Below are positions 237 through 15,751 of a DNA stretch of 15,972 bases, in pieces (position 1 is the first letter of the stretch; each line of letters begins with the position of its first letter). The DNA is from a virus. Lineage: Duplodnaviria > Heunggongvirae > Uroviricota > Caudoviricetes. Both the position numbers and the translations under genes were made by a program. The notes beneath the pieces were generated by a model that ran no database searches, was not told the DNA's origin, and worked only from the letters and a program-made list of their open reading frames with translations. The stretch lies in the IMG/VR virus record IMGVR_UViG_3300021426_000084; one strand, written 5' to 3'.

Positions 237-253
237 TAGAGTAGGTGAGAGTT

Positions 254-568
254 GTGAATATATCAAAAATAAGAAAGCTGTGTCTTCAATATGGCGTAAG
301 GATTTCTCGCCACGCCAGTGAACGACTGGACGAGAGAAATATAACCATAGACGAAGTAGAACAAACCATATTGTATGGTGAAGTTATAGAGGAACGTCCA
401 TGGAGTACGCCACTGCCATCATGTCTGATGTTTTATATACATATGAATGGGCGCCCTATCCATGTGGTTGTTGGGTTAGATGGTGACAATGATGAAATAT
501 CGCTTATAACAGCATATATTCCCAGTAGCGACAAATGGGAAGACGACTTTAAGACGAGGAGGAAATAA
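254..568 (+). CDS. DUF4258-family (RelE/BrnT-like) putative toxin
   Basis: Motifs SRHASERLDERNITIDEV, SCLMF...GRPIHVVVG, LITAYIPSSDKW...KTRR are typical of DUF4258; GTG 254 has an AGGTG RBS (ORF track start 245 lacks one); coupled to a YgiT-type zinc finger gene. Confidence 0.85.
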   Translation: MNISKIRKLCLQYGVRISRHASERLDERNITIDEVEQTILYGEVIEERPWSTPLPSCLMFYIHMNGRPIHVVVGLDGDNDEISLITAYIPSSDKWEDDFKTRRK

Positions 569-569
569 C

Positions 570-794
570 ATGACTTGTGCAACTTGCGGCGGCAGCATAA
601 ATGGTGATAAGCTCACTGTATACTATGCGCATTATAATGGTTATCTGATATCTATAAAGAATGTTCCTGGAGCAGTATGCCCACAGTGTGGAGAAGTATG
701 GTATAAGTCTCCTGTGTTGAAGCGGGTAAAGGCTCTTATTGAAGAAGCTAAAAAGACAATAGACAGCAATATTGTCATGGATTACGCGGCGTAA
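570..794 (+). CDS. YgiT/MqsA-type zinc-finger protein, putative antitoxin (no HTH)
   Basis: CxxC (CATC) ... NVPGAVCPQCGEVWY motif; GAGGAGG RBS inside the toxin 3' end; ends DYAA. Confidence 0.85.
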   Translation: MTCATCGGSINGDKLTVYYAHYNGYLISIKNVPGAVCPQCGEVWYKSPVLKRVKALIEEAKKTIDSNIVMDYAA

Positions 795-828
795 AATATG
801 CGTCCGTTGTGATGTGGTTACTACCGTT

Positions 829-863
829 GTCTGCTCCGCAGACGATTGTCTTGTTTCTTATGA
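829..863 (+). repeat. Triloop hairpin + conserved tail, copy A
   Basis: GTCTGC-TCC-GCAGAC (829-843), then TTGTCTTGTTTCTTATGA at 846. Confidence 0.85.
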
Positions 864-881
864 ATAACTAAAAATAACATG

Positions 882-916
882 TAAGCTCCAGTCTGTATGG
901 CTGGGGCTTATTTTAT
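882..916 (+). terminator. Terminator-like RNA hairpin with U-tract
   Basis: TAAGCTCCAGTC / GGCTGGGGCTTA 12-bp stem with G-U pairs, followed by TTTTATT. Confidence 0.55.
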
Positions 917-942
917 TGCCTGTAAAGGAGATGTGTATAAAT

Positions 943-1422
943 ATGTTACTCAATAAAATGACTGCACATGAAAGAAAGGCTCTGTTTGGATTGTGTGCTT
1001 TAATGCTGCATAATGCCATGGCTAATTCTGAGGCATTTGTAGTGCCCCTAGCTATAAGAGGGTGTATTACTTCTGATGTACTTGGTCTGTTAAAAGCAGA
1101 GTGGGTAGACGGAAGGAAAATGCGCGCCCAAAATGTTAAGGGCGTTACCCCTCAGCAGGTAGCCATGGCCATGGTAAAGGCAGATGTCGTCGAGGTGCCC
1201 CAGGTGGCAACGGGGCCTTCGGCCGAGGAGGGAATGAAACCCCAGCTGGATAGTGAATCTGTCCTGAGCGCCGGGGCTGTATTTACTACGGCATCGAAGC
1301 GCAAGTACAAGGTTGTCACCAAGTTTGACCTCGCCGAGTATCTTGCATCTTCTCCTGCAAACAAATGCCGTATCATCGCTGGTGCGGTAAAAGACTGTGC
1401 CATCGAGAAAGTTGCCGCATAA
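943..1422 (+). CDS. Hypothetical protein, C-terminal ...KVAA
   Basis: ORF 916-1422; AAGGAG at 925-930 makes ATG 943 the likelier start. Confidence 0.7.
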   Translation: MLLNKMTAHERKALFGLCALMLHNAMANSEAFVVPLAIRGCITSDVLGLLKAEWVDGRKMRAQNVKGVTPQQVAMAMVKADVVEVPQVATGPSAEEGMKPQLDSESVLSAGAVFTTASKRKYKVVTKFDLAEYLASSPANKCRIIAGAVKDCAIEKVAA

Positions 1423-1447
1423 CATCGAGCTATTCAGTTAGTGTCTC

Positions 1448-1485
1448 ATCGCCCTCCGGGCGATAGGTTGTCTTGTTTATTTTGA
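1448..1485 (+). repeat. Triloop hairpin + conserved tail, copy B
   Basis: ATCGCCC-TCC-GGGCGAT (1448-1464), TTGTCTTGTTTATTTTGA at 1468. Confidence 0.85.
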
Positions 1486-1520
1486 ATATGTTTTTTTGTT
1501 TTTTACAGGAGGAAATCAAT

Positions 1521-1799
1521 ATGTTTGACGTAAAAGAGCTTAACAAGAAGATTAAAGAGATTGGCGTTGATAAAATCAGATATATTGCCGAGGAGGAAGA
1601 TGGCGGCAATGAATGGAGCTCCTATATCGATCTCGACGACAGCAACGCAAAACAATACTTCGGTTTTGACCTTAAGACCGAGTCTTTCCAGGATAACATA
1701 ACGGAATCATGGGAAGGTTATCGTATTGACCCCAGCCCGTTTGACGGTATGTTCGATATTGTCTTCTATGGGTACGGCACGGCATATCAGTTGGATTGA
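1521..1799 (+). CDS. Small acidic, aromatic-rich hypothetical protein (92 aa)
   Basis: AGGAGG RBS before ATG 1521; 21 D/E vs 9 K/R. Confidence 0.8.
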   Translation: MFDVKELNKKIKEIGVDKIRYIAEEEDGGNEWSSYIDLDDSNAKQYFGFDLKTESFQDNITESWEGYRIDPSPFDGMFDIVFYGYGTAYQLD

Positions 1800-1827
1800 C
1801 ATCGAGGTTTCTTAGGTAAAGACAGCT

Positions 1828-1862
1828 GTTCGCTCCGCGAACGGTTGTCTTGTTTTTCATGA
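1828..1862 (+). repeat. Triloop hairpin + conserved tail, copy C
   Basis: GTTCGC-TCC-GCGAAC (1828-1842), TTGTCTTGTTTTTCATGA at 1845. Confidence 0.85.
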
Positions 1863-2196
1863 GAGATTGTTCCTGACGTGTAGGAGAAGTACTGGAATGC
1901 TTCCGACACTTACAGATGGAACGGTTATGTGTACAGGAAGAATGTTCCAGCATTCTCGACACTTGCGCAAAACCAGGAGAGGTCGTTATGGCTTCTCACA
2001 GATGATATCAGATATTAGAACTCAATAATATTCTGGTGTCATGTGTGAGCAGTCCTAAGGCAAGGGATTGCCCCCTCCTATAGTAAAAAACAAAAGGGGA
2101 GGTTCCCAAACATACCGTTTGGGGCCTTCTCAAAGTCATGATATTTTTCTTCTCCGGGCAAGCTGATTTTGTGGTTTGCCCGGTGTTTTCTTTTTT
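1863..2196 (+). ncRNA. Candidate structured ncRNA or leader (family not recognised)
   Basis: No credible ORF; nested stems 1871-1978, ~23-bp stem 1995-2049, GGCAA-GGGA-TTGCC (GNRA loop) 2059-2072, CCCAAAC/GTTTGGG 2105-2123, terminator at the end; G-U pairs favour the + strand. Confidence 0.4.
2154..2196 (+). terminator. Intrinsic terminator-like hairpin
   Basis: CCGGGCAA / TTGCCCGG stem followed by TGTTTTCTTTTTT. Confidence 0.65.
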
Positions 2197-2249
2197 ATCA
2201 TGTTTTTGAGAAGGTTTGTTTTTCTCTATAACAGAAAGGAAGAGTAGCT

Positions 2250-2657
2250 ATGACTATCTATGTTGTGGAATCTGAAATATACTATGACGGAACTCCTGAA
2301 GTGAATATCGAACAGGTATTTGCCGCCCGCAAGGACGCAGAAGTGTTCGTGGCAAAAGCAAATGCTTTTAATGCCGTGCTGTCAAACAAACCATGTTTAC
2401 GCATTATAGAGCATGAGGTTGCAGAAAGTGAAAACTTCCAGCCGCAAAACATTTGCGTGTCTATCTGGGAAGCAGAAAATGGTTCGCTTTCAAGACCATA
2501 TGTGTTTGCAACGGCAAAAGATGTGCATCCTATGGAGCGCGAGGAAGAGCCGAACTGTATAAACTACGCCGCCAGTTGGAGGGGAGTGTTCCCTTATCAG
2601 GAAGGCGTGACCAAAGAAGAACTGGTAAAAAAGGCCTTCGGCCAGTGCAAAAAATAA
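2250..2657 (+). CDS. Hypothetical phage-type protein
   Basis: GAAAGGAAG RBS; N-terminus IYVV...QVFAARKDAE resembles a common small phage beta-alpha domain. Confidence 0.75.
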   Translation: MTIYVVESEIYYDGTPEVNIEQVFAARKDAEVFVAKANAFNAVLSNKPCLRIIEHEVAESENFQPQNICVSIWEAENGSLSRPYVFATAKDVHPMEREEEPNCINYAASWRGVFPYQEGVTKEELVKKAFGQCKK

Positions 2658-2670
2658 AGGAGCGCAAGCA

Positions 2671-3102
2671 ATGACAAAAGAGGAATTAAGAGACAAACTC
2701 AATGAAGAGCGTGGCTCGATGACAGGGCTCTGCTCCACCGAGCTTGCTTTGGAAGTATGTAATATGGTGTTGAGTGAATGCAGCGCGCCCATGTTTGCAG
2801 GAAACGATATTGCAGAAACCGAAGTGGGCAGTCTTGCCATAAGCTTTGAGGCAAGGGAATTTAGTGGCTGGCTCCGTGAGTATGCCAGTGCAGACATGTC
2901 GCTTTGCACGGCAGAAAAAGTGAGCAGGCTACTGGAATACTTCGGTATCAACAACACCGTATGGTATGCCTACAAGGGAGTTCGCCAAAAAGACTTCCGG
3001 CATATCAGTCTGCCCATGTCCAGAATCCGCGAGGAATATCCATATCTTTGGAAAACCTGGAGTGGAGAGCCCATTTATTCAGAGAAAAATGGTGTAGCGT
3101 AA
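2671..3102 (+). CDS. Hypothetical protein (ends ...GVA)
   Basis: AAGGAG RBS; operonic with 2250-2657. Confidence 0.75.
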   Translation: MTKEELRDKLNEERGSMTGLCSTELALEVCNMVLSECSAPMFAGNDIAETEVGSLAISFEAREFSGWLREYASADMSLCTAEKVSRLLEYFGINNTVWYAYKGVRQKDFRHISLPMSRIREEYPYLWKTWSGEPIYSEKNGVA

Positions 3103-3122
3103 AATAGAAAGGGAGATATGCC

Positions 3123-3518
3123 ATGAAAAAGTATGCATTGAAAATCGTCCGTAATAATGTTATGATAATTCCTGTTTGGGACGTAACCTACGGCAAGTTT
3201 GCTACGCTTGCCTACGAGCTGGTTATCCATCATTATCTTCCGGGCTCCTTTGACCGCTGGGAGATAGTATCGCGGCATGGTTGCACTACGAAGTACAAGG
3301 ACAAACTTACCGGAGAAACAGCTTATAGTTGGCTGATGAAAAACGGCAAGATTGTGTCGGACTTCGATGAGGAAGATAAGCCGCAGAGCAAACCATTCAC
3401 GGTATTTGCTAATGGCAAAGCTGTAGGGTGCGACAGTGTTCAGCAGGCCGCCCGCATGGCTGTCAATGCAATCTTTGACCGTATCCACCGCCCGGCCATT
3501 ATGCGCCGCGCATCATGA
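3123..3518 (+). CDS. Hypothetical protein (ends ...RRAS)
   Basis: AAAGGGAG RBS; operonic spacing. Confidence 0.75.
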   Translation: MKKYALKIVRNNVMIIPVWDVTYGKFATLAYELVIHHYLPGSFDRWEIVSRHGCTTKYKDKLTGETAYSWLMKNGKIVSDFDEEDKPQSKPFTVFANGKAVGCDSVQQAARMAVNAIFDRIHRPAIMRRAS

Positions 3519-3536
3519 TTTAGGAGGAATTGGAAA

Positions 3537-3692
3537 ATGGAAGTCTGGATAGTTTTACTCTTTCTTGCAAGTATCTTGTATTTTGTCATTCTCATTGGCT
3601 GGGTAATTCTGTCAGCCATTTGGGAAAGTATTCAGGAAACCTACTTTCCCAAGAAAGAATCCCGCGACAACAGAAAGAGATATACCCACTGA
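3537..3692 (+). CDS. Small single-pass membrane protein, 51 aa (MEVWIVLLFLASILYFVILIGWVILSAIWESIQETYFPKKESRDNRKRYTH)
   Basis: Not in the ORF track; AGGAGG 3523-3528 is 8 nt before ATG 3537; ~27-residue hydrophobic stretch then a charged tail; the track ORF 3530-3760 is in a different frame. Confidence 0.75.
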   Translation: MEVWIVLLFLASILYFVILIGWVILSAIWESIQETYFPKKESRDNRKRYTH

Positions 3693-3700
3693 CTGCCGTT

Positions 3701-3735
3701 TCGCCCTCCGGGCGATATTGTCTTGTTTATTTTGA
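3701..3735 (+). repeat. Triloop hairpin + conserved tail, copy D
   Basis: TCGCCC-TCC-GGGCGA (3701-3715), TTGTCTTGTTTATTTTGA at 3718. Confidence 0.85.
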
Positions 3736-3774
3736 GATGATTTTTTTGGACGCATTGTGAAAGGAGCGTTTATC

Positions 3775-3924
3775 ATGAAAAAGACGTACATCTCGATTGA
3801 ATGGGGCGACCAGAGAACACGGTTTGAAAGAGCCGAGGCAATCAGAAAAGCCTTGGAGCTTGTAGCTCGTAAGGCACAAAAACCAAATACGCTGGAAGAA
3901 AAAGCCGCCCGCAAAGCGGCTTAA
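3775..3924 (+). CDS. Small basic protein, 49 aa (MKKTYISIEWGDQRTRFERAEAIRKALELVARKAQKPNTLEEKAARKAA)
   Basis: Not in the ORF track; AAGGAG 3761-3766, ATG 3775, TAA 3922-3924; ends AA like its neighbours. Confidence 0.75.
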   Translation: MKKTYISIEWGDQRTRFERAEAIRKALELVARKAQKPNTLEEKAARKAA

Positions 3925-3975
3925 TTTTTTTGCCCGAAAATATTTGTGTAGTTTTGGAAAAGGAGAATGAACACC

Positions 3976-4374
3976 ATGGAAATGAAAATGTATTTTAACG
4001 CTAAAGAAATGCTCGCCGTAAAGAAGCTGATGGAATCCTTCGGCCAGACCTTTGTCCGTGAAGACCAGTATGAGGTAGATGGCCCCATTCGCTTCAGCGT
4101 GAACCATGTAGATGGCGAGGCTATTGTCACCATTGCCAGCAACGACAATTTCTTCTGCGATGTGCTGGGTATCTTCAGCCGCAACGCCGGTCTCATCAAG
4201 AACGTAATCGGCGTTGGCAAGAGTCTGTTCGAACTCTGCAAGAGCACGGTAAACATCCTGGAGGGTGAGCTTGATACAGTATGCAAGAAGTACCGCACTC
4301 CGGTCAAAGATGAACACATTAAACCGTACGGCAGTTTTACTACTGAGCCGGTAATCGACAAAGAGGCCGCGTAA
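3976..4374 (+). CDS. Hypothetical protein, C-terminal ...KEAA
   Basis: AAGGAG 3960-3965 fits ATG 3976 better than 3967. Confidence 0.8.
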   Translation: MEMKMYFNAKEMLAVKKLMESFGQTFVREDQYEVDGPIRFSVNHVDGEAIVTIASNDNFFCDVLGIFSRNAGLIKNVIGVGKSLFELCKSTVNILEGELDTVCKKYRTPVKDEHIKPYGSFTTEPVIDKEAA

Positions 4375-4421
4375 AAACTCGCGTCGCTTGCTGTTGATTT
4401 TTTAGAAGACGAAGGGACTGA

Positions 4422-4601
4422 ATGTATATGAAAAGATTTATCAAATGGTATTTAGGAGACGACAAGGCAGTAAGTGACGAGAAGGTTTTGGCCCGCCGGC
4501 AGAAATTTGTCGGTGGAGCCAAGGCCATAGCAGAACAGGCAGTAGACGTGATTGCAACCGGCGCGGTTGTATTCTACGCCGTCGCAAGAAACATTCGTTA
4601 A
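4422..4601 (+). CDS. Small protein, 59 aa (MYMKRFIKWYLGDDK...TGAVVFYAVARNIR), hydrophobic C-terminal segment
   Basis: Not in the ORF track; GAAGGGA RBS 4411-4417; fills the gap between neighbouring genes. Confidence 0.65.
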   Translation: MYMKRFIKWYLGDDKAVSDEKVLARRQKFVGGAKAIAEQAVDVIATGAVVFYAVARNIR

Positions 4602-4620
4602 GAAAGGCAGGTTGCTAATC

Positions 4621-4788
4621 ATGTTCAATACAAATGCAAACACAGAAAAAATCCGTAAACATAACCGCATCTACAGCGAAGGCCGCGAAGCAAGAATGCT
4701 TCGTGACCGCGCCAAGCGGAAGATGACCCGCAGGGACTATGACCGCCTTGCGGAAGAAAAGTATGCCGAGTATAAAATAGCGGCATAA
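4621..4788 (+). CDS. Small basic helical protein, 55 aa, C-terminal ...KIAA
   Basis: AGAAAGGCAGG upstream of ATG 4621 (track start 4552 overlaps the previous ORF). Confidence 0.7.
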   Translation: MFNTNANTEKIRKHNRIYSEGREARMLRDRAKRKMTRRDYDRLAEEKYAEYKIAA

Positions 4789-4863
4789 CCGATATTTTGG
4801 CTGGAGACGCCGCAAGTAATTATCCTCTTGTCTGGATAGTGCCGTCTTCGTCCAAATTCCACT

Positions 4864-4896
4864 TCGCCCTTCGGGCGACATTGCTTTGTTTTTATG
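4864..4896 (+). repeat. Triloop hairpin + conserved tail, copy E (variant tail)
   Basis: TCGCCC-TTC-GGGCGA (4864-4878), TTGCTTTGTTTTTATG at 4881. Confidence 0.8.
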
Positions 4897-4900
4897 GGTT

Positions 4901-4956
4901 CCTGGCGCTCCCCAACCCCCTATGGGCTTCCCCTATGCGTCAGGGGCCTATTTTTT
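4901..4956 (+). terminator. Terminator-like hairpin with U-tract before the 4978 gene
   Basis: CCTGGCGC / GCGTCAGG stem with a large loop, T6 at 4951-4956. Confidence 0.4.
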
Positions 4957-4977
4957 ATCAAAGAAAGGAAATGACCT

Positions 4978-5247
4978 ATGGTATTTCAGAATGACCTGGA
5001 AAGTGTATTCCCTGAAAGCTACTACCGGTTCTTGCCGGCCAAGAGACTGACCACTCTTTGCGATAGCTTCCATATCGTAAGTGACGGCAGTGAACTTGAC
5101 GTTATCCGCAGGGACACCCTTGAAGGAAACGTCGTAACAACCGCCCGCCTTAAAAGCGAGGCCGGCGAGACTATCTTCTTCACCGCCCATACCACCTATG
5201 GTGACTTACTGCATCTTGTGGACAAAGAGGCAGAGGCCGCCGCATAA
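4978..5247 (+). CDS. Hypothetical protein, C-terminal ...EAEAAA
   Basis: GAAAGGAA RBS 7 nt upstream. Confidence 0.8.
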   Translation: MVFQNDLESVFPESYYRFLPAKRLTTLCDSFHIVSDGSELDVIRRDTLEGNVVTTARLKSEAGETIFFTAHTTYGDLLHLVDKEAEAAA

Positions 5248-5388
5248 ACCCCCACCTTGGCAAAAAAAGAGGAGCTTTGAGCCCCTCATAGTACGTCGAA
5301 GAATGTTTGTTGCCTCCTACATTTTTCGGCGCACTATGAAAGGCTTGAATCCCAAAGTAAAAATCCCCTTTCCAAGAACAGAACTCTT

Positions 5389-5423
5389 GTCTGCTTCGCA
5401 GACGATTGTCTTGTTTATTTTGA
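5389..5423 (+). repeat. Triloop hairpin + conserved tail, copy F
   Basis: GTCTGC-TTC-GCAGAC (5389-5403), TTGTCTTGTTTATTTTGA at 5406. Confidence 0.85.
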
Positions 5424-5618
5424 GAGGATTTTTCCGCCCGCATACATACAGATTATATAACTAACTTACGTCTGTCTCCTGTAAGCAGGGCTGAGCTGAT
5501 TTTATCCTTTCACCGTCGTAGCCCCAGAAAACGGACAGTAGTCCAGAAATGTTCATTTGTAGCCCGCTGAAGCGAAATGCTGATAAAAAGCGGGATAAGA
5601 AAAAGGAGTGTTTTATTT

Positions 5619-6548
5619 ATGGCAAACGTAAATGAAATGATTAAGGCAGAAGCAAACAAGGTATCCCGCCGCGAAGCATTGATGGCAAACCTCGATAAGC
5701 AGATGGAGGCAACCAATGTGCTGACGGAAAAAGCCCGCGCAAAACGCGAGGAGGAACTCAAGAACAACACGGTTATCATGAGTGTCGTCAGTTCCCGGGG
5801 TTACGTCGGTCTGGTTGCCGGCGATATTGCCCAGGAAATCGTTGAGCCCGCTGTTGTGGCCAAGGCCGTAAACAAGAAGACGGGTGAAGTTATGACCGCG
5901 CCCGTTGCGACGTTGAATGGCGTGCGTCAGGCTCTCCATAAGGCCGCAGAGTATGGCAAAGACCATCTGGTTCTTTATGTCAATGACTTTGAGGCTCGCC
6001 GCATTTCCGGCATGCTCAACCGCATTGGTAAGGGTTCGAACGAAGTGCTCACGGCAAAAGAAGTTGAACACATTTCCAGCCCGACCAATGCCAGCAAGTA
6101 TGGCAACAGCTACATTGCCTATGCGAAAGGCGTATTCCTCGACCTGAAGGCGGCGCTCGAAAAGTTTAAGTCCATTCGCGTGATGGGCCACAACGCCATC
6201 TTTGGCTGGGAACTGAAGTACAGCAATCTGCCGCTGGATATGGAAAACATGGAGCTGACCTTCAGCAAAGGTTTTGCGTCCACGACCTTTAAGGGGCGCA
6301 ATTATCGCATCAGCCTTGCTTCCGGCTTCAAGCTCAATGGCAAGCACAAACTGGTAAAAGCCAATGGTTCTTTGGTGGTTGGCCGTGAAATCAAAGAAGG
6401 CTCCGAGCAGGAAACCGCCCGTGACCTGTTGTCCATTGTCAACAAGACGATTATCATCAAGGACAACACGGACCGCAGTGAAGCCATTGTGAATGAAGGT
6501 GCAGGCATCGACGCTCCGGCTGAAGAAGCCATCGATTTCGCCGCATAA
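5619..6548 (+). CDS. Hypothetical protein with a possible degenerate RNase H-like domain, C-terminal ...DFAA
   Basis: AAAGGAG RBS before ATG 5619; segment ATLNGVRQALHKAAEYGKDHLVLYVND ... KAALEKFKSIRV resembles the RNase HI helix A/strand 4 pattern (by eye only). Confidence 0.8.
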   Translation: MANVNEMIKAEANKVSRREALMANLDKQMEATNVLTEKARAKREEELKNNTVIMSVVSSRGYVGLVAGDIAQEIVEPAVVAKAVNKKTGEVMTAPVATLNGVRQALHKAAEYGKDHLVLYVNDFEARRISGMLNRIGKGSNEVLTAKEVEHISSPTNASKYGNSYIAYAKGVFLDLKAALEKFKSIRVMGHNAIFGWELKYSNLPLDMENMELTFSKGFASTTFKGRNYRISLASGFKLNGKHKLVKANGSLVVGREIKEGSEQETARDLLSIVNKTIIIKDNTDRSEAIVNEGAGIDAPAEEAIDFAA

Positions 6549-6566
6549 GCAAATACATGCAAAAAG

Positions 6567-6604
6567 ACTGGGCTGTCAGCAGTTGATGGCCCAGTTTGTT
6601 TTTA
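6567..6604 (+). terminator. Intrinsic terminator-like hairpin
   Basis: ACTGGGCTGTCA / TGATGGCCCAGT stem followed by TTGTTTTTA. Confidence 0.6.
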
Positions 6605-6629
6605 TCGTCAAGAAAGGACGGAAACCAAA

Positions 6630-6920
6630 ATGATTATGAACAAAGTATGCCCGAAACATATCGTATTCCCGAAATCCAACCGTGCCAATTCCAAAGTAAA
6701 CTGGAGTCTTACCAAGAACCTCCCCAATGGCTGGGTAAATATCTCCGCCAAAATCCCCCAGACTTGTCTGGATAAATACGGCTTTATCAGCCGCGACGTA
6801 ATCAATTTGCTCCGCACTCCATGCGCAGACAGCCGGTTTAAGCTTCGTTCGCTGTACAGAGTGGAGGTCAGCTATGACTACCACCTTATCGAAGACGCAG
6901 TTATGCCGGTTGCCGCTTGA
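6630..6920 (+). CDS. Hypothetical protein, C-terminal ...PVAA
   Basis: AGAAAGGA RBS; 96 aa. Confidence 0.75.
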   Translation: MIMNKVCPKHIVFPKSNRANSKVNWSLTKNLPNGWVNISAKIPQTCLDKYGFISRDVINLLRTPCADSRFKLRSLYRVEVSYDYHLIEDAVMPVAA

Positions 6921-6950
6921 TAGTCGGTTGCCCCTTGAGGAGGGATTTTA

Positions 6951-7772
6951 ATGGAAACACAAAAAGATACAAAAAATACTCAGGGGGCTGACCCTATCCT
7001 CAGCTTCCTGAATGATACCATCGATACATTGCTTACGCCTGAAGAAAAACAGGAGAAAAAGCAAGAACCCATCGATGTCACACCCACGCCCAGAGAGACG
7101 GAAGAAGCAGAGCCGGCGCCAAAAGAAGTAAAAAGCGTCGACCAGATTGCTGATGAATTTGCACAGGAAGTTGCAAAAAATGTACAGGAGGAAATCAAAA
7201 TGAGTGAACAGAAAGAAACACAGGTAACCATCGACAGTGAAACCGGCGAGGTAGTGCAGGAGAGGTTCTCCAAGACCTTTGAGAACCGTCAGGAAGCCAA
7301 CAACCTGTTGGACTTGCTGGACAGCCTTGGTTATGAAGACAGCTATGAAACCAGCGATGGTGGCAAGACGGTTATCCTCTCTGGTGTTAACGCCGAGGAT
7401 TTACAGCTTATCCAGCGCAAGGCAAACATCAAGCTCTGGTCAGACCGCACGCAGGCAGTTGCCAAAGCCGTCACCACGTTTGCAACCGATGTGGCAGACT
7501 ATGCTTTGAATGGCGCACTTGCTCCGACGGCAGGGGCTGTCGTAAATGCCGGTATGACCACAGGCAGGGTTGTTGCGACTGCCGCTGTTTCGGTTGGCGC
7601 CGCAACGCTTGCTACGACTATCCGCAACGGCAGAGCCGCTGCCCGCGAACTTTCCCGCAATAAGGACGTTCGGGACGCCTGGAATGAAGTGAAAGGTTTG
7701 GGCTCCGATATTGGCGGCTTGCTCTTTGGCTCCAAAGGCGGCACTAAATCCGACTGGACAACGTGTGCCTGA
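6951..7772 (+). CDS. Hypothetical protein: acidic disordered N-terminus, Ala/Gly/Val/Thr-rich amphipathic C-terminus; second in-frame start at 7200
   Basis: AGGAGG at 6938-6943 and again at 7186-7191, 8 nt before in-frame ATG 7200. Confidence 0.85.
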   Translation: METQKDTKNTQGADPILSFLNDTIDTLLTPEEKQEKKQEPIDVTPTPRETEEAEPAPKEVKSVDQIADEFAQEVAKNVQEEIKMSEQKETQVTIDSETGEVVQERFSKTFENRQEANNLLDLLDSLGYEDSYETSDGGKTVILSGVNAEDLQLIQRKANIKLWSDRTQAVAKAVTTFATDVADYALNGALAPTAGAVVNAGMTTGRVVATAAVSVGAATLATTIRNGRAAARELSRNKDVRDAWNEVKGLGSDIGGLLFGSKGGTKSDWTTCA

Positions 7773-7786
7773 TTTACAGAAAAACG

Positions 7787-7820
7787 TCCGTCCGCAATTT
7801 CGCGGGCGGATTGTTTTTTT
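7787..7820 (+). terminator. Intrinsic terminator
   Basis: TCCGTCCGC / GCGGGCGGA stem followed by TTGTTTTTTT, directly after the 7772 stop. Confidence 0.75.
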
Positions 7821-7855
7821 ACGCATACTTAAATAACCCGAAGGAGGATACTGTT

Positions 7856-7990
7856 ATTCTTGCACTGCTATACGCTCTGTTCGAGATAGGTTCCGAAATG
7901 AACCAGATTATCGAAATAGAGATAGAGAAAGACCAGCGCGAAATCCAAAGGCTCAAAGAGGAGCAACGAAAACTTCGCGCCCGTAAGTAA
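7856..7990 (+). CDS. Possible small protein (hydrophobic N-terminus + charged coiled coil) with ATT start, or pseudogene
   Basis: Perfect AAGGAGG 7841-7847 followed 8 nt later by in-frame ATT rather than ATG; alternative ATG at 7898. Confidence 0.35.
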   Translation: MLALLYALFEIGSEMNQIIEIEIEKDQREIQRLKEEQRKLRARK

Positions 7991-8430
7991 TCCTGCCGCA
8001 GAAATTCGTACTCATGAAAGGAGTGAGATAAGCACCATGGTTGTTGTGACATATTTAGAAAAGCTATACAGATTATCCAGAACACTAACCCATCCCAGAA
8101 CAATAGCTTATGTCACAAATACCAAAACTGATATGGTTGCCAGCCCCTTCCCCACCCAAAAGAGACAAGAAGAAAGACCTCTAAGACACTTTTTGGTTAA
8201 ACAAACTGTTAAGTGTCTGCACACATCCCGGTTGGGACTTATCATCGCCCGGCCGCAGAACTGCACCACGGGAGATATTAAGGCACCACCCCATATATAG
8301 GCTCCAGGCCTTCAGCCTAACCTTATGAGCGCAGATTGATATACTTGTTCGGTCAGACCTTGTGAGCGCAGACAAAATAAGAAACTGCCTGACAGGCGAA
8401 CAAGAAAAATCAAAAGCTCATATTTTGTTA

Positions 8431-8705
8431 GTGCGAGCGAGCGAAGCGAGCGAGCACATCAAACAATATTTAATCCCCAAACAACTAATCAAACAAGCGA
8501 AAAGAACAGAGCTTGTTTATATATGCGAGCGTAGCGAGCATATAAAAAGAAAACAAATATTTAAAAAAGCATACTAACTTTTACAGACATTGTAAAAAAT
8601 AGTATACGACCTACCCGAAGGGCAGAACGAAATATATACATGAAATGACAAAAGAATGTATATATTAAGTCATGCCCCTATTAAGGGGCGAACGAAGTGA
8701 GCCCC
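8431..8705 (+). repeat. Cluster of four GNA-triloop hairpins on the + strand, three with tandem GA/GA mismatches
   Basis: GTGC-GA-GC-GA-GC-GAA-GC-GA-GC-GA-GCAC (8431-8457); TATATGC-GA-GC-GTA-GC-GA-GCATATA (8520-8544); CCC-GAA-GGG (8614-8622); GGGGC-GA-AC-GAA-GT-GA-GCCCC (8685-8705). Confidence 0.8.
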
Positions 8706-8859
8706 GGCAAACACTCATGCGGAAAGATATCACCTATATAGTCTATCAGAGACAAAAAGCGGATATCTTTTTGTAAGATTACCTCTTTACTTAAAAGAAC
8801 GAGTTCTATATCTCCGCCCGCAAAGAGTTCTTACATCTTCTCCGCATGGAAATAACCAC

Positions 8860-8898
8860 GCGCGTCCTCCGGCGCGCAAATTGTACTGTTCTTTATGT
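8860..8898 (+). repeat. Degenerate triloop hairpin + tail, copy G
   Basis: GCGCG(T)CC-TCC-GGCGCGC (8860-8877), TTGTACTGTTCTTTATG at 8881 (13/17 identical to the tail of copy A). Confidence 0.55.
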
Positions 8899-9120
8899 GT
8901 ATATCTCATATCCACCAACAGAGAGAGGTAGACTGTATACGTTATCTCTCTCTTTCCCTATCACATATTCTTTTATATCTCCTAATCCCCTTTATTATAT
9001 ATGCAGCACGCATACTCATTATATGTGTGTAAGAAATAAGGGTGTATATATAAGAGCTATTAGGATAAAAAAAGAAATATATGAATGAATGAATGTACAT
9101 ATAGAGAACGGTATAATTTA

Positions 9121-9144
9121 GCGGGCGAGCGTAAGCGAGCCCGC
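9121..9144 (+). repeat. Tandem-GA hairpin, left flank of the Bro/Rha gene
   Basis: GCGGGC-GA-GC-GTAA-GC-GA-GCCCGC. Confidence 0.8.
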
Positions 9145-9194
9145 ATAACCCAAGCCGCGTCAGGTAAATGACAGTCAGAAAGGAAGATTATGTC

Positions 9195-11180
9195 ATGGAT
9201 AGTATAGACATCATCCACGTAGCAGACAAAAAGCTTATCTCCAGCAAAGAGATAGCAAGGCTGTATAAAATCAAGCATGCAGAACTCTTTGAGTTTATTG
9301 AAGCCCTGTGTAAGTTTGATCCTTACGAAAGGGCATTATTCCAAAAAGCCGAAGGTCATTACCTTATGGAAGAAAAAGGTTTTCTGGCCATACTGACGTA
9401 CGCGTCTCTTGATAAAGAGCGTGACAACATTAAGACAGAGGTGTGTAAGATGTTGAGTAAAAATAGCAAAGGCAAATCCAAAGACAAAATTCCGGCACAG
9501 AATTTACCCGCTGCAGAACCGGAGCAAATTTTTACCGCCCACGGCGAAAGAGTCAAATTTTTGACAGATTTTCAAATTGGCGGACAGAATTATCATCTCT
9601 ACGACGCAGGTATGCAAAATTTGCTGGTCAAAGCCACAGATTTATGCGCATGGCTAAATTTTGTAAAACGTTCGTGGGGAGGATATGATGGCAGCAGACT
9701 GGCGAAAAACCTCGGCGCCGATGAAAAGATAAAAGTCAATATCATAGAGGTATTGGGTAACAAGAGTAGGATACGCAAGCAGTGGCTTGTGACTCTGGAC
9801 GCTGTTCAGAAGATTATTAACTCTGATACTTATCGCGAGCGCATGGATAAGGATATCAGAGAAAGCCTCAACAAGATGATTGACGACATGAACTCCTCCA
9901 CGGTAGGAGAGTCTCCTAAACCTATTGTCATCCCGGATACAAAAGTACAGGTTCAAGAGAAGCTCCCCGACTGGTTCGCTTGTGAGGTGGTTGGCAGCAA
10001 TGACGATATGGAATGGCTGAATGAACTGCCGCCCGAAAAGAATATCACTCCACAAGAGAAAACCGAAGGAGAGGCAGATGGAGAGAGCGCTAAACCCATG
10101 AGCGCAGAATTACAGATTGTAACCGAGCAGGAAGTGCTTGGCAGAAACTTTACCGTGTATGGCACGGCAGAAGAACCATTGTTCCTGGCCAAGGACGTGG
10201 CTGAGATGATTGAGTACGACAGATCTTCCGTACACAAAATGTTGAATACGGTTGAGGAGGAAGAAAAGGTTCGGAAGATTGTTCCGACCCCTGGTGGAGT
10301 ACAAGAGTCATGGTTCCTTACCGAAGATGGTCTGTATGAAGTCTTAATGCAGTCCCGCAAACCAATCGCCAAGCAATTCAAGAAGCAGGTTAAGGCAATC
10401 TTAAAACAGATTCGCAAAACCGGAGCGTATATGTCCCCGCAAGTTGCGGCAGATATACAGCAGGTCATTGTACAAAACTCTGAGGCAATGAAGCAGTTTG
10501 GTCATCTGGTTATGCAAAACTCACAGATTGCTGCACAAAATACGCAGCTTATGGCTCAGCTCGTACAAATGATGACTGAGCGCATAGATAAGAATGGTGA
10601 GCTCGTATCAAGAATCAGCACAGCTGTAGAACAGTCTGCTCAGAATACAAACCTCATCAGTAAGATGGTTAATCAGCTCGGGCGCAATATTACTACGGCC
10701 ATCAAAGACGCAAATACTACGCCGGCCTTGACTGCCACGGATAATAATCTGCCTGCAGGTAACAGTGAACCGGATATCACTGGCTGCATAACCCTGAAAG
10801 CGGCTGCGGAGAAACATGGTTTCTATACCATCAAAACAGGTAAGCCGAATTATTCACTGGTAGCAGACATCTTAAAATATGGCTGCGGTATAATGCTTAC
10901 CGTTATCCCAGGATACAAAGATGACTATATCATAGTCAAACCGACTGTATCCGTCCGCGGCGATATTCGTCCATGTATCTTCTTAACAGTTAAAGCTCAG
11001 ATTAAGTTAAATAACTATATAGTATGCCATATCCATAAGATACTGAAAGTAGAGACTTATAAGAGAGCTTACAACCATAAGTTAAAAGGAGACTGGAGAT
11101 TTGACTACATACAGTTCCCAGGCAGGAGGAGACACATCATTGCCAACAAGAATGGTATGGTTAAAAAATTCGCCGCGTAA
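9195..11180 (+). CDS. Multidomain phage antirepressor-like protein: Rha-like N-terminus, degenerate Bro-N, canonical Bro-N, Gln/Asn coiled coil, C-terminal domain; ends ...KKFAA
   Basis: ISSKEIARLYKIKHAEL resembles Rha-family starts; GTAEEPLFLAKDVAEMIEY...FLTEDGLYEVLMQSRKPIAKQFKKQV..IRKTGAY is a typical Bro-N; GAAAGGAAG RBS favours ATG 9195 over 9168. Confidence 0.85.
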   Translation: MDSIDIIHVADKKLISSKEIARLYKIKHAELFEFIEALCKFDPYERALFQKAEGHYLMEEKGFLAILTYASLDKERDNIKTEVCKMLSKNSKGKSKDKIPAQNLPAAEPEQIFTAHGERVKFLTDFQIGGQNYHLYDAGMQNLLVKATDLCAWLNFVKRSWGGYDGSRLAKNLGADEKIKVNIIEVLGNKSRIRKQWLVTLDAVQKIINSDTYRERMDKDIRESLNKMIDDMNSSTVGESPKPIVIPDTKVQVQEKLPDWFACEVVGSNDDMEWLNELPPEKNITPQEKTEGEADGESAKPMSAELQIVTEQEVLGRNFTVYGTAEEPLFLAKDVAEMIEYDRSSVHKMLNTVEEEEKVRKIVPTPGGVQESWFLTEDGLYEVLMQSRKPIAKQFKKQVKAILKQIRKTGAYMSPQVAADIQQVIVQNSEAMKQFGHLVMQNSQIAAQNTQLMAQLVQMMTERIDKNGELVSRISTAVEQSAQNTNLISKMVNQLGRNITTAIKDANTTPALTATDNNLPAGNSEPDITGCITLKAAAEKHGFYTIKTGKPNYSLVADILKYGCGIMLTVIPGYKDDYIIVKPTVSVRGDIRPCIFLTVKAQIKLNNYIVCHIHKILKVETYKRAYNHKLKGDWRFDYIQFPGRRRHIIANKNGMVKKFAA

Positions 11181-11270
11181 AATGCACGTATAAGGCCGCA
11201 GATTATTTTCTCGTATCCCCATACGGGAAATACATAATGTGCAAATAAAGGCCCATATACGATGAAAAAA

Positions 11271-11294
11271 GCCGGCGAGCGTAAGCGAGCCGGC
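11271..11294 (+). repeat. Tandem-GA hairpin, right flank of the Bro/Rha gene
   Basis: GCCGGC-GA-GC-GTAA-GC-GA-GCCGGC; same core as 9121-9144 with compensatory outer stem. Confidence 0.8.
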
Positions 11295-11395
11295 AAACAT
11301 ATATATGCGCGCCAAAATTTTACGGGACCATTCAGGTCTCCTTAAAATAGCGTATATATTATCCCCTATAAGTCATATAGGATCATTTAGACCTT

Positions 11396-11481
11396 ATGAG
11401 CGCAGCTCATTTATGCCCGACATACCCATACAGGAGTATTCCCCTTAAAAAAGCATAAGGGAAGCCCACAGCGCGAAGCGC
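11396..11481 (+). repeat. Two GNA-triloop mini-hairpins
   Basis: ATGAGC-GCA-GCTCAT (11396-11410); GCGC-GAA-GCGC (11471-11481); CCTTRTGAGCGCAG is also present at 8321-8334 and 8358-8371. Confidence 0.65.
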
Positions 11482-11637
11482 ACAATTTTTCAAGAGTGTA
11501 AACTAGGTATACTGTACAAGTACAACAGTATTGCAACTATGATACAGGAGACCAAAATCAGGGAAAATTATTTATTTATCCCCTAGAGGGAAATAACACT
11601 TTTCCCAAAACAGGTTTACACTTTTGCAAAATTCTGC
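11480..11637. repeat. 24-bp imperfect inverted repeat, 110 bp apart
   Basis: GCACAATTTTTCAAGAGTGTAAAC (11480-11503) vs reverse complement of 11614-11637 (GCAGAATTTTGCAAAAGTGTAAAC), 21/24; internal hairpin ATACTGT/ACAGTAT. Confidence 0.7.
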
Positions 11638-12300
11638 AGTACGAGATGTGGTACTCCAGGGTCAAATATACAGATATATTTGCGGAGAGGCATACCAAAA
11701 ACCCTAAGCCAATATATGAGTGATACGCTTATATGAGACGCAAGTAAGAAGGTAAGTAAGAAGGAAAAGGAAGAGCTGAAAATAGCTCTGAGAAAACGAC
11801 TTCAAAAATGCTCCTCAGTGGCCTCAAAAGGCCTCTCCAGTGCATTTGAAGAGAAAATTTTCCGAAACGGCGTCGAAGATAAGAAAACGCTCACAGATGG
11901 CTTAAAACGGCCAATTTGGGAAGCCGTGTTGTACACGCTTTTCACACGAGATTATGCGCCTTTCTTGCGCATATGATATGCGAGGTGTGCAAAATCGTAA
12001 AGTAAAACCGGCTTCGTTTTTGCAAAATAGGTAAATTTTTACCTTATGTTAGGAGTTGCACCTGGCTCGCCCCACAAATACAAAGCTACATAAAGCTGTA
12101 TAGGGCCGCATATCGCGCGAATACATGAGCGCGTCGCCCCGCAAAGCAGTAGCTCTCTCCACATACGTACAACGCTGCTCCACCAACAAATACAAGGTTA
12201 GAATCCCATAGGGCGTAGCCCAGAGACAAAGAAAGCATGTTAAAACCGGAAAATATTTTTCCTTAATTACAAGCTCTATAGAATTTTGTACACACCCTTC

Positions 12301-12330
12301 TTGACAATGAGGGGTTTTAACGTGTATATT
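12301..12330 (+). promoter_or_regulatory. sigmaA-type promoter of the right-hand gene block
   Basis: TTGACA (12301-12306), 18 bp, TATATT (12325-12330). Confidence 0.65.
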
Positions 12331-12384
12331 ATGTGTAAGAAGTAAGTAAGAAGGTAGCCACAAGTGAGGTGTAAGACAGATTAT

Positions 12385-12963
12385 ATGTTGACCGGTATAT
12401 TGAAGATGATGTTAGGTGTAGAAGAAAAACCGAAAGAAGATAAAGCTACGTCTAAGAAAGAGTCCAAGGATATCATACATCCCTTCCCTAATGCTCCGGT
12501 AAAGATTGACTTTATCTCCAGTAAGCTTATGGGGAGATACTGTCCGGAGTATATTGCCGCGCCCGGAGGAAGGATTTTTACGGTAGCAGAAGAAGATATC
12601 CTTGCAAAGGCGATGTTTGCCGCCTGTGTGCGTTACTACAACTATCCTATCACCAAGAGTACGATTGATTCATTTGAAGCATTTGTCGTACAAAAATGTA
12701 GGGAAAGGTCTGTTAAGGACACTGTTGTTAAGAAGTATAACACCCTACAGGAACAATTGAATGAGCTTAATATTCGCGTAGAAGATACTTTCGCGCGCAA
12801 TCATCCCAATCGTATGTATAGGCATAATCCAGATAGAGAGTACCTGAACATGTGTAGTGTTTATGAACAGAATCAGGCTTATAAAGAATTCGCAAAGAAG
12901 TTGGATACGGAAAAAGAATTACGCAAAAAGGAATATGAGAAGTATAGGAGTATCTGGTATTAA
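12385..12963 (+). CDS. Hypothetical protein
   Basis: Long ORF (track 12364-12963); start uncertain (GTG 12364, ATG 12385 or 12406). Confidence 0.75.
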   Translation: MLTGILKMMLGVEEKPKEDKATSKKESKDIIHPFPNAPVKIDFISSKLMGRYCPEYIAAPGGRIFTVAEEDILAKAMFAACVRYYNYPITKSTIDSFEAFVVQKCRERSVKDTVVKKYNTLQEQLNELNIRVEDTFARNHPNRMYRHNPDREYLNMCSVYEQNQAYKEFAKKLDTEKELRKKEYEKYRSIWY

Positions 12964-14893: not shown

Positions 14894-15751
14894 ATGTTTA
14901 AAAAAGTAGCTGTGCATGATAGCGTATTCCATGCTGATGATGTAGTGGCGGTAGCCGCTATCAGAGTTTTATATGGTTATGAACCTGCCATTTTGCGTAT
15001 TCCTTCTCGCGATGATGAGAAACAGGAAAAGGCACGCCAGGACGGATTTACGCTGGTAGATATTGGCGGCGGAGAATTTGACCATCATGGTGCCGCCCGC
15101 GACTGGCAGTATAATAACGGCATCTATCTGTCTGCTTTAGGCAAGGTACTGAAGCAGGCTGTAAAAGACGGCAAGCTTACGCAGGAAGAACTGGACATCC
15201 TTCTGTTTAATGGTCTGTACGACCTGCAGGCAAAGGACAATGGCCAGGACTTTGATGGTGTACCGAGCCCGTTCGGTTTTGTTCACTGGCTTAACAGCGA
15301 GGATATTAGCGATGACATATGTCAGATCTGGCAGTTCCGGCTTGCTGTCGAAATAGCAATAAATATTTTTGCCTCTATGCTGAATGATGCAAAGAAGTCT
15401 ATCGCTGAACATGAGGAATGCGTTGCGGTCTTTAAGGCCATGGGAGAAGATGGCATTGCTAACTTCCCGCATTATATGTCTCATGGTGTGCGGGAGTGTC
15501 AGCAGTGGAATGACCGGTTCCCGGAGAAAGAAGTTAAGTTCTTTACGTTCCCGATGAGGATTGGTGGATATAGAATTCAGGGCGTGAATAAGGTAGGTTC
15601 TTTTAAACTTAACCATGAACTGAAGTATAAGGGTCTTAGGAATGAAGAACTTAATGCCGCCGCCGGTATTACGGATGGAATATTCGTTCACGCAACGGGA
15701 TTCATTGGCGGCGCCGATTCTTTGGAGAGCTGCTATAAACTGGCGAAGTGA
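14894..15751 (+). CDS. MYG1: MYG1/UPF0160-family DHH-superfamily nuclease
   Basis: Conserved motifs HDSVFHADD, LVDIGGGEFDHH, and C-terminal GITDGIFVHATGFIGG. Confidence 0.9.
   Translation: MFKKVAVHDSVFHADDVVAVAAIRVLYGYEPAILRIPSRDDEKQEKARQDGFTLVDIGGGEFDHHGAARDWQYNNGIYLSALGKVLKQAVKDGKLTQEELDILLFNGLYDLQAKDNGQDFDGVPSPFGFVHWLNSEDISDDICQIWQFRLAVEIAINIFASMLNDAKKSIAEHEECVAVFKAMGEDGIANFPHYMSHGVRECQQWNDRFPEKEVKFFTFPMRIGGYRIQGVNKVGSFKLNHELKYKGLRNEELNAAAGITDGIFVHATGFIGGADSLESCYKLAK

Follow-up and report, generated by a model that had tools for sequence, protein, structure and literature searches.

Why do about half of the proteins of one phage gene block terminate in the same dipeptide, Ala-Ala? The block lies in a stretch of 15,972 nucleotides (IMG/VR virus record IMGVR_UViG_3300021426_000084; hereafter the window, meaning the whole of this stretch), which is part of an uncultivated jumbo phage of ~210 kb from gut or rumen. 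The original prediction listed nine proteins with an Ala-Ala (AA) end between positions 570 and 11180 and regarded them as unrelated early effectors that had converged on degrons of the host protease ClpXP. Relatives of the phage were found via a 323-aa protein of the block, as IMG/VR contigs of 147-235 kb: L001/G004 (224 kb) and L002/G002 (211 kb) are 99% and 98% identical to the window, respectively, and a sister clade (L003-L005/G003, 235 kb) shares 67% identity with it at the protein level. Genes of G002 and G003 were called with a self-trained codon-score picker of open reading frames (ORFs), and pSRC1, a megaplasmid of Selenomonas ruminantium, was used as a candidate host-lineage replicon.

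Ala-Ala ends in the window and over whole genomes

In the window, AA-COOH ends were found in 9 of ~21 plus-strand ORFs, while ~0.1 would be expected at 7.4% Ala, the content of a close relative. The binomial probability of at least nine such ends in 21 ORFs is ~1e-15, and ~1e-10 at a generous p of 0.02. All nine C-termini of the original prediction were reproduced from the ORF list and the sequence around the stops, and the IA (126), VA (3102), AS (3518) and CA (7772) ends were also correct as listed. Its chance expectation of far below one stood as well, although the Ala content of ~9% that it had assumed was too high. The nine ends are written as GCS-GCN followed by TAA (eight) or TGA (one). 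As had been noted (with 12385 as the boundary), none of the five complete ORFs to the right of 12364 ends in AA, their C-termini being WY, KN, SV, DN and AK. The AA-ended genes, followed by neighbours with other ends, are:

570..794, plus strand: MqsA-like zinc-ribbon antitoxin, 74 aa, DYAA end (PF15731, E 4e-7), same end in L001 and L002
916..1422, plus strand: protein without known family, 168 aa, KVAA end; orthologue in the 67% clade KIAA, last codon changed; ratio of nonsynonymous to synonymous divergence (dN/dS) 0.10
3757..3924, plus strand: 55-aa protein, RKAA end; orthologue RKAA; dN/dS 0.14
3967..4374, plus strand: 135-aa protein, KEAA end; orthologue (49% identity) NKAA, both Ala codons and the stop codon changed
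4552..4788, plus strand: small protein, KIAA end, likely true start ATG 4621; orthologue KIAA, gcggca TAA changed to gccgcg TGA; dN/dS 0.15
4978..5247, plus strand: 89-aa protein, EAAA end; orthologue (56% identity) KVAA
5577..6548, plus strand: 323-aa protein, DFAA end, likely start 5619; weak RNase H-like fold and a variable, acidic, low-confidence tail of ~20 residues
6630..6920, plus strand: 96-aa protein, PVAA end, TGA stop; orthologue PIAA
9168..11180, plus strand: Bro-N/antirepressor-like protein, 670 aa, KFAA end (PF02498, E 7e-16; phrog_130 anti-repressor, E 3e-31)
245..568, plus strand: DUF4258 toxin-like gene (DUF4258, E 3e-22), own end not AA
2671..3102, plus strand: 143-aa protein, GVA end, weaker and ssrA-variant-like; orthologue SVA
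3123..3518, plus strand: 131-aa protein, RAS end; orthologue RAS
6951..7772, plus strand: 273-aa protein, TCA end; orthologue ACA

The DUF4258 toxin-like gene and the gene of the MqsA-like protein (245-794) form a two-gene toxin-antitoxin-like pair. Its putative antitoxin member, the DYAA-ended 74-aa protein, lacks the helix-turn-helix (HTH) half of MqsA, and the pair is found in L001 and L002, not in the 67% clade.

In regard to the whole genome, AA is by far the commonest C-terminal dipeptide of G002, where it ends 18 of 218 called genes and two small missed ones, in total 20 of ~220 (1.2 expected, P 3e-18). All of these belong to the non-structural part, about one in seven of its genes (20/149), whereas the structural arm (70-175 kb) holds none among 71 (Fisher 3e-4), the Ala content being 7.1% in the non-structural and 7.7% in the structural proteins. 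Terminal Ala of any kind shows the same partition, with 38/149 non-structural vs 2/71 structural proteins. Likewise, AA is the top C-terminal dipeptide of G003 (15 called and two missed genes), located in the same arm, and VA is the second commonest in both genomes. The highest density was observed at 43.5-57.7 kb of G002, where 11 of ~20 called genes are AA-ended; this region corresponds to the AA block of the window (~570-11180) together with ~3.5 kb upstream of the window. The block is real, but the AA habit extends upstream of the window and over the whole non-structural part of the genome. The label of early effectors also proved too narrow, as the set spans replication proteins, regulators and an antitoxin. 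Members with an assigned family include a Mor/HTH-like regulator, an NrdG-like radical-SAM activase, a Dda-like helicase, PhoH, a primase-like protein, two KilAC/Bro-N antirepressor-like proteins and the MqsA-like antitoxin.

Such ends are not equally common elsewhere. Besides their absence from the structural arm, pSRC1 (285 kb, Ala 9.3%), processed with the same caller, has one AA end in 244 genes. The string GCNGCNTRA exceeds its reversed control in G002 (102 vs 30) and shows no excess in T4 (20 vs 22), SPO1 (2 vs 4) or phiKZ (19 vs 27), so the AA habit is not general to large phages. In the next clade out (L030, helicase 63% identical), the AA gene block is absent altogether and one AA end was found in 31 genes. 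Chance or composition as the cause of the AA ends was ruled out by the binomial tests, the equal Ala content of structural and non-structural proteins, and the pSRC1 count.

The predicted convergence of unrelated proteins on an AA end was borne out by the lack of mutual similarity and the restriction of AA to this clade in the helicase, PhoH and NrdG families. Common descent of the nine proteins was rejected, with no pairwise similarity found among them (best E 0.03 in a nine-sequence database). The gene of the Dda-like helicase lies just upstream of the window, and its AA-ended product (MAA or IAA among the AA set) shares this end with three database homologues of at least 74% identity (P0006-P0008) and with the G003 orthologue at 72%. 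A further homologue (P0009, 73% identity) ends in IA, and the other helicase homologues among the matches listed, all at 63% identity or less, hold one unrelated AA end in 117. In the PhoH family, AA is limited to two clade members (at least 88% identity), where it sits on a basic tail of ~9 residues past the usual family end, and it occurs in 0/66 others; among representatives of the NrdG-like activase, AA was found in 0/150. Inheritance of AA from family-level C-termini was thus ruled out for the helicase, PhoH and NrdG families, in which only this phage clade is AA-ended. Judged by these sequence comparisons, the phage lineage has added AA ends independently to many unrelated non-structural proteins.

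Conservation of the motif between orthologues

Reciprocal-best orthologues of G002 and G003 differ by a synonymous divergence (dS) of ~0.5-3, largely saturated, with dN/dS of 0.04-0.27; because of these ratios, the small ORFs are taken as real genes. Among the 17 AA-ended G002 genes with a G003 orthologue, AA is kept in 14, and the remaining three end in VA, VA and TA. Counted from the C-terminus over the 17 pairs, identity is 100% at -1 (17/17), 82% at -2 (14/17) and 29% at -3 (5/17), with 35-65% further in. In control non-structural genes without AA, identity is ~50% at every position and the last dipeptide is kept in 24/68 (Fisher 7e-4). Exchanges of AA with VA or TA go in both directions between G002 and G003 (VMAA/EGVA, RKAA/YVA, RRVA/RLAA, QEAA/KTA), and they resemble LVA, AAV and ASV, engineered variants of ssrA whose stability is graded.

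While the two residues persist, the letters behind them do not. Eleven synonymous Ala-codon changes fall in 7 of the 14 pairs that keep AA (e.g., gccgcg to gcagct), and stop codons differ between some AA orthologues. Outside the window, AA ends are written as GCT-GCA, GCA-GCA, GCA-GCT or GCT-GCG, with TAA, TGA or TAG. Furthermore, GCNGCN plus stop occurs 120 times in G002, of which 20 copies are gene ends; the other 100, lying out of frame, antisense or between genes, agree with an order-3/order-5 Markov expectation of 83-96 +/- 9. Protein-level selection on AA, as originally proposed, is thus upheld by orthologue conservation, by the codon changes and by the lack of an excess of the DNA string. 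The contrary expectation that the word GCSGCNTAA would be kept regardless of frame was not borne out, as Ala codons vary and copies away from gene ends stay at the expected level. On the evidence of these alignments and counts, the AA end is a protein motif kept by purifying selection rather than a DNA word.

Candidate readers of the motif and competing explanations

With selection maintaining the AA end, a role as a built-in tag for lifetime or recognition is probable. On balance, we lean towards reading such ends as genome-encoded ssrA-like degrons of the ClpX C-motif-1 type, which would be recognised by host ClpXP; here, we infer both the reader (ClpXP) and the outcome (turnover). In the ssrA tag, terminal Ala-Ala-COOH is the part essential for ClpX, and further natural C-motif-1 degrons of ClpX are those of E. 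coli RecN and Caulobacter CtrA. The phage ends share with the ssrA tag and with natural degrons of this type a terminal Ala-Ala with free carboxylate, a variable tail and conservation over orthologues; terminal Ala-Ala-COOH itself was found in the nine window ORFs, in the 20 G002 genes and in the 14 of 17 orthologues. According to this model, host ClpXP, or a different AAA+ protease of the host with specificity for ssrA or Ala-tail ends, would bind the exposed xAA-COOH and then unfold and degrade the protein carrying it. Regulators, replication factors and the antitoxin would in this way obtain a limited, protease-dependent lifetime, and virion proteins would be left without such an end. Degron strength could be tuned by the variable residue at -3 and by the exchanges of AA with VA or TA between orthologues.

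Several known systems can be compared. The conserved natural AA-COOH end of sigma-AntA in Streptomyces was predicted to be a ClpXP degron and then verified: 67 of 71 orthologues are AA-ended, and the change of AA to DD blocks ClpXP and stabilises the protein (PMC7142297). However, sigma-AntA is one regulator, whereas in the phage ~20 unrelated proteins are concerned, Leu is rare at -3 and the degron role is predicted from sequence. A screen of random C-terminal tags in E. coli also found ssrA-like AA ends to be by far the most potent and the sole strong degrons (PMC10862746). Among phages, an ssrA-like tag is present on the virally encoded repressor of mycobacteriophage BPs (PMC4557955). The likeness lies in a phage protein whose lifetime is set by an ssrA-like degradation tag written into its gene at the C-terminal end, a role that is putative for the tags described here. 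In BPs, attP is placed inside the repressor gene and integration removes the tag, while in the present, lytic-looking jumbo phage ~1/7 of the non-structural proteins are involved and such a switch has left no sign, although no search was aimed at an integrase or attP; because AA genes are of many kinds, the integration-dependent immunity of BPs leaves the AA set unexplained. The BPs integrase is also ssrA-tagged. In the ribosome quality control of Firmicutes, Ala-tailing by RqcH/RqcP marks proteins with C-terminal Ala for ClpXP in Gram-positive-type hosts. There, untemplated Ala is added to stalled chains, whereas the phage ends consist of two templated, conserved Ala codons followed by a normal stop.

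As context in favour of a degron role, the two relatives G002 and G003 encode transfer-messenger RNA (tmRNA), recognised by Rfam with 86 and 91 bits and with tag sequences DEAEYRLAA and DEVEYRLAA, respectively, beside islands of ~14 tRNA genes:

L006 (G002) 5740-6136: tmRNA
L028 (G003) 2719-3117: tmRNA

The AA ends described here are not tags added by tmRNA, being in-frame Ala codons that precede a normal stop and are conserved in orthologues. As far as their coding goes, the encoded AA ends mimic the ssrA tag and are not an instance of tmRNA tagging. Family searches of G002 found no ClpP, ClpX zinc finger, AAA_2, AAA, Lon/Lon_C, SmpB, S41 or PDZ_2, and several of these reader families were likewise absent from G003 and G004 in family searches. 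With none of these families found in the phage genomes, any reader is either host-encoded or an unrecognised phage protein.

As for the tails themselves, position -3 over 37 AA tails holds I, V, F, M, L, A or Y in 20 cases and K, Q, E, D, T, N or S in 17, and position -4 is charged in 26. Exposure was modelled for the 323-aa protein. In seven sequences down to 61% identity, its last ~25 residues are full of substitutions and indels, while FAA is invariant. The AlphaFold2 (AF2) model has a core with a predicted local distance difference test (pLDDT) score of 80-90 and a tail (303-323) below 50. For this one protein, the model places the FAA end on a tail that is predicted to be exposed or disordered. 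The same model shows a long N-terminal helix pair and a core with a weak RNase H-like fold (Foldseek matches to RNase H domains, E 2e-4; Pfam gave a sub-threshold DUF5460 only).

Several observations weigh against a degron role. Leu occupies -3 in just 2 of the 37 tails, and the position is often K, Q, E or D. In E. coli, AA is necessary and not sufficient: tags of fewer than five residues did not work, and those with Pro, His, Gly or a short polar residue at -3 were weaker (PMC10862746). With Leu rare at -3 and -4 usually charged, many of the phage tails would be weaker than ssrA if E. coli rules hold, although the host may differ. Several AA tails look helical rather than floppy, and the accessibility model covers one protein. 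Helicase, primase and PhoH are not obvious targets of rapid turnover. The low AA count of L030 makes the habit narrow, so that it could serve a clade-specific reader. Finally, tmRNA was not found in G004, the record nearest to the window, whose contig breaks inside the window-equivalent region.

The degron reading could also be extended to a lifetime code of the whole proteome, a speculative extension in which we place little confidence. Graded ends, with xAA strongest, xVA and xTA weaker and further tuning at -3 and -4, would assign half-lives to be carried out by the host's ssrA/Ala-tail proteolysis, and the tmRNA of some relatives would keep or load this pathway. In such a code, antitoxins and other substrates of host ClpXP may in addition face competition from the tails.

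Alternatively, xAA-COOH could be a docking or sorting motif, read by a non-protease (a phage protein that escaped recognition, or an adaptor or chaperone of the host) that brings non-structural proteins together in a compartment or in an assembly for replication or transcription. In form it is like a short linear motif, in that the tail varies, -3 included, while the terminus is invariant, and the frequent charge at -4 suggests that it is slightly longer than AA. Its limitation to one phage clade and its presence on replication proteins that need not be unstable are consistent with docking as well. On the other hand, searches of the phage for a reader of C-terminal peptides were negative (PDZ_2, S41, AAA, AAA_2, Lon, ClpP), although Pfam can miss unknown readers, and we know of no AA-reading system in bacteria besides ssrA/Ala-tail proteolysis. 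We regard docking as rather unlikely.

It is more doubtful still that the AA proteins act as decoys, jointly loading host ClpXP and slowing the decay of its other substrates, such as host antitoxins whose loss sets off abortive infection, or the phage's own proteins. Many AA ends on abundant-looking small ORFs in one block, the clade-specific accessory nature of this block and the LAA-tagged load that the relatives' tmRNA would add are in line with such a role. However, the decoy idea is wholly a matter of inference, conserved AA on large enzymes genome-wide would be superfluous for it, and one strong inhibitor would be cheaper.

A nucleic-acid signal, in which GCSGCN-TAA would serve as a recombination site, terminator stem, methylation or restriction word or termination context with Ala-Ala incidental to it, draws on GCSGC in 9/9 window ends (vs a 45% GCS share among the Ala codons of the block, P 8e-4) and on one AA end placed in a terminator-like hairpin (3902-3922), yet it is highly improbable in view of the other Ala codons and all three stops used outside the window, the third positions that change at saturated dS while Ala stays, and the unenriched out-of-frame, antisense and intergenic copies. 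That all nine ends read GCSGC had been raised as a caveat to the original prediction; the observation was correct, but a general codon-pair habit accounts for it, as GCS is the first codon in 18/22 internal Ala-Ala pairs of the window. The hairpin overlap concerns 1/9 AA ends, the stem including the last codons of the 55-aa protein, and neither conservation nor enrichment independent of frame was observed of the kind expected from a repeated DNA element at gene ends (attC-like, similar to a repetitive extragenic palindrome (REP), or a terminator stem). The DNA word GCSGCNTAA was accordingly rejected on the orthologue codon changes, the GCS habit of internal pairs and the Markov counts.

Surroundings of the block and meaning for the phage

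The window has no cultured relative: the best helicase match in cultured phages by tblastn is at 32% identity or less, and megablast of the window against cultured phage records gave no match. Against plasmids, megablast gave a sole match of 131 bp to Selenomonas pSRC1. Public runs containing the sequence come from animal gut, faeces and sheep metagenomes. Pfam and PHROGs assign few genes of the window, namely the DUF4258/MqsA-like pair, DUF7336, the Bro-N antirepressor-like gene (9168-11180) and a MYG1-like gene (14894-15751), and Rfam and ARAGORN searches of the window found no match.

At the left edge, positions 1-190, which include the end of the ORF terminating in IA, are 85% identical to an unannotated intergenic stretch of S. 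ruminantium pSRC1. L002 lacks this segment, the depth of which in the likely source run is 10-20x that of the rest of the window. It may be a shared mobile or abundant element, or an assembly chimera; because of this possible chimeric join, the pSRC1 match is weak as a clue to the host.

An intergenic repeat was also observed, in which a short GC-rich hairpin (loop of 3 nt) directly precedes TTGTCTTGTTT, with six exact plus-strand copies vs 0.7 expected:

194-204, 846-856, 1468-1478, 1845-1855, 3718-3728 and 5406-5416, plus strand: repeat copies, each ahead of a gene
near 4864-4890: variant copy

The repeat resembles a promoter/terminator unit specific to the phage. Two gene-poor, AT-richer stretches of ~1.2 kb each (7990-9168 and 11180-12364, GC 38-41%) hold no convincing ORF and no Rfam match. 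Metatranscriptome libraries of two studies yielded contigs that match 3785-5011 and 5352-7704 at 97-99% identity, where DNA carry-over is possible; this cover of the AA block is a weak hint at transcription, and the gaps (7996-9061 and most of 11.7-14.4 kb) are uninformative in that regard.

In G002, a full-length ROOL RNA (RF03087, 216 bits) adjoins the tRNA island, and ARAGORN reports a type-II tRNA-Stop(tta) of 93 nt with the ochre-suppressor-like anticodon UUA:

L006 (G002) 12036-12619, minus strand: ROOL RNA
L006 (G002) 2575-2667, minus strand: tRNA-Stop(tta)

The latter adopts a cloverleaf fold in which the T-arm is good and a CCA end is present, has no Rfam call and is absent from G003 and G004, with a different tRNA-Ser(UGA) occupying its slot in G003; TAA is the main stop codon of G002. 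Read-through by this tRNA, masking the degron at AA-TAA ends, was considered and dropped, as stop-codon use of AA genes matches that of the genome.

The kind of signal described here is known, and single phage precedents exist. In the literature searched, its spread over a large share of a phage's non-structural proteome was not found, nor was any bacterial virus that exploits a host degron on the scale of its genome; the precedents there concern single proteins only (BPs gp33, sigma-AntA). If the degron reading is true, roughly one in seven non-structural proteins of the phage carries, written into its gene, the most potent C-terminal degradation signal of the host, and the phage would possess a simple post-translational timing device beside the transcriptional early, middle and late programmes. 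Half-lives of dozens of phage proteins of unknown function would then be predictable from sequence, and ClpXP would represent a host dependency or a vulnerability of this phage group. The same ends would also constitute a natural library of graded xAA and xVA tags for a poorly studied group of hosts.

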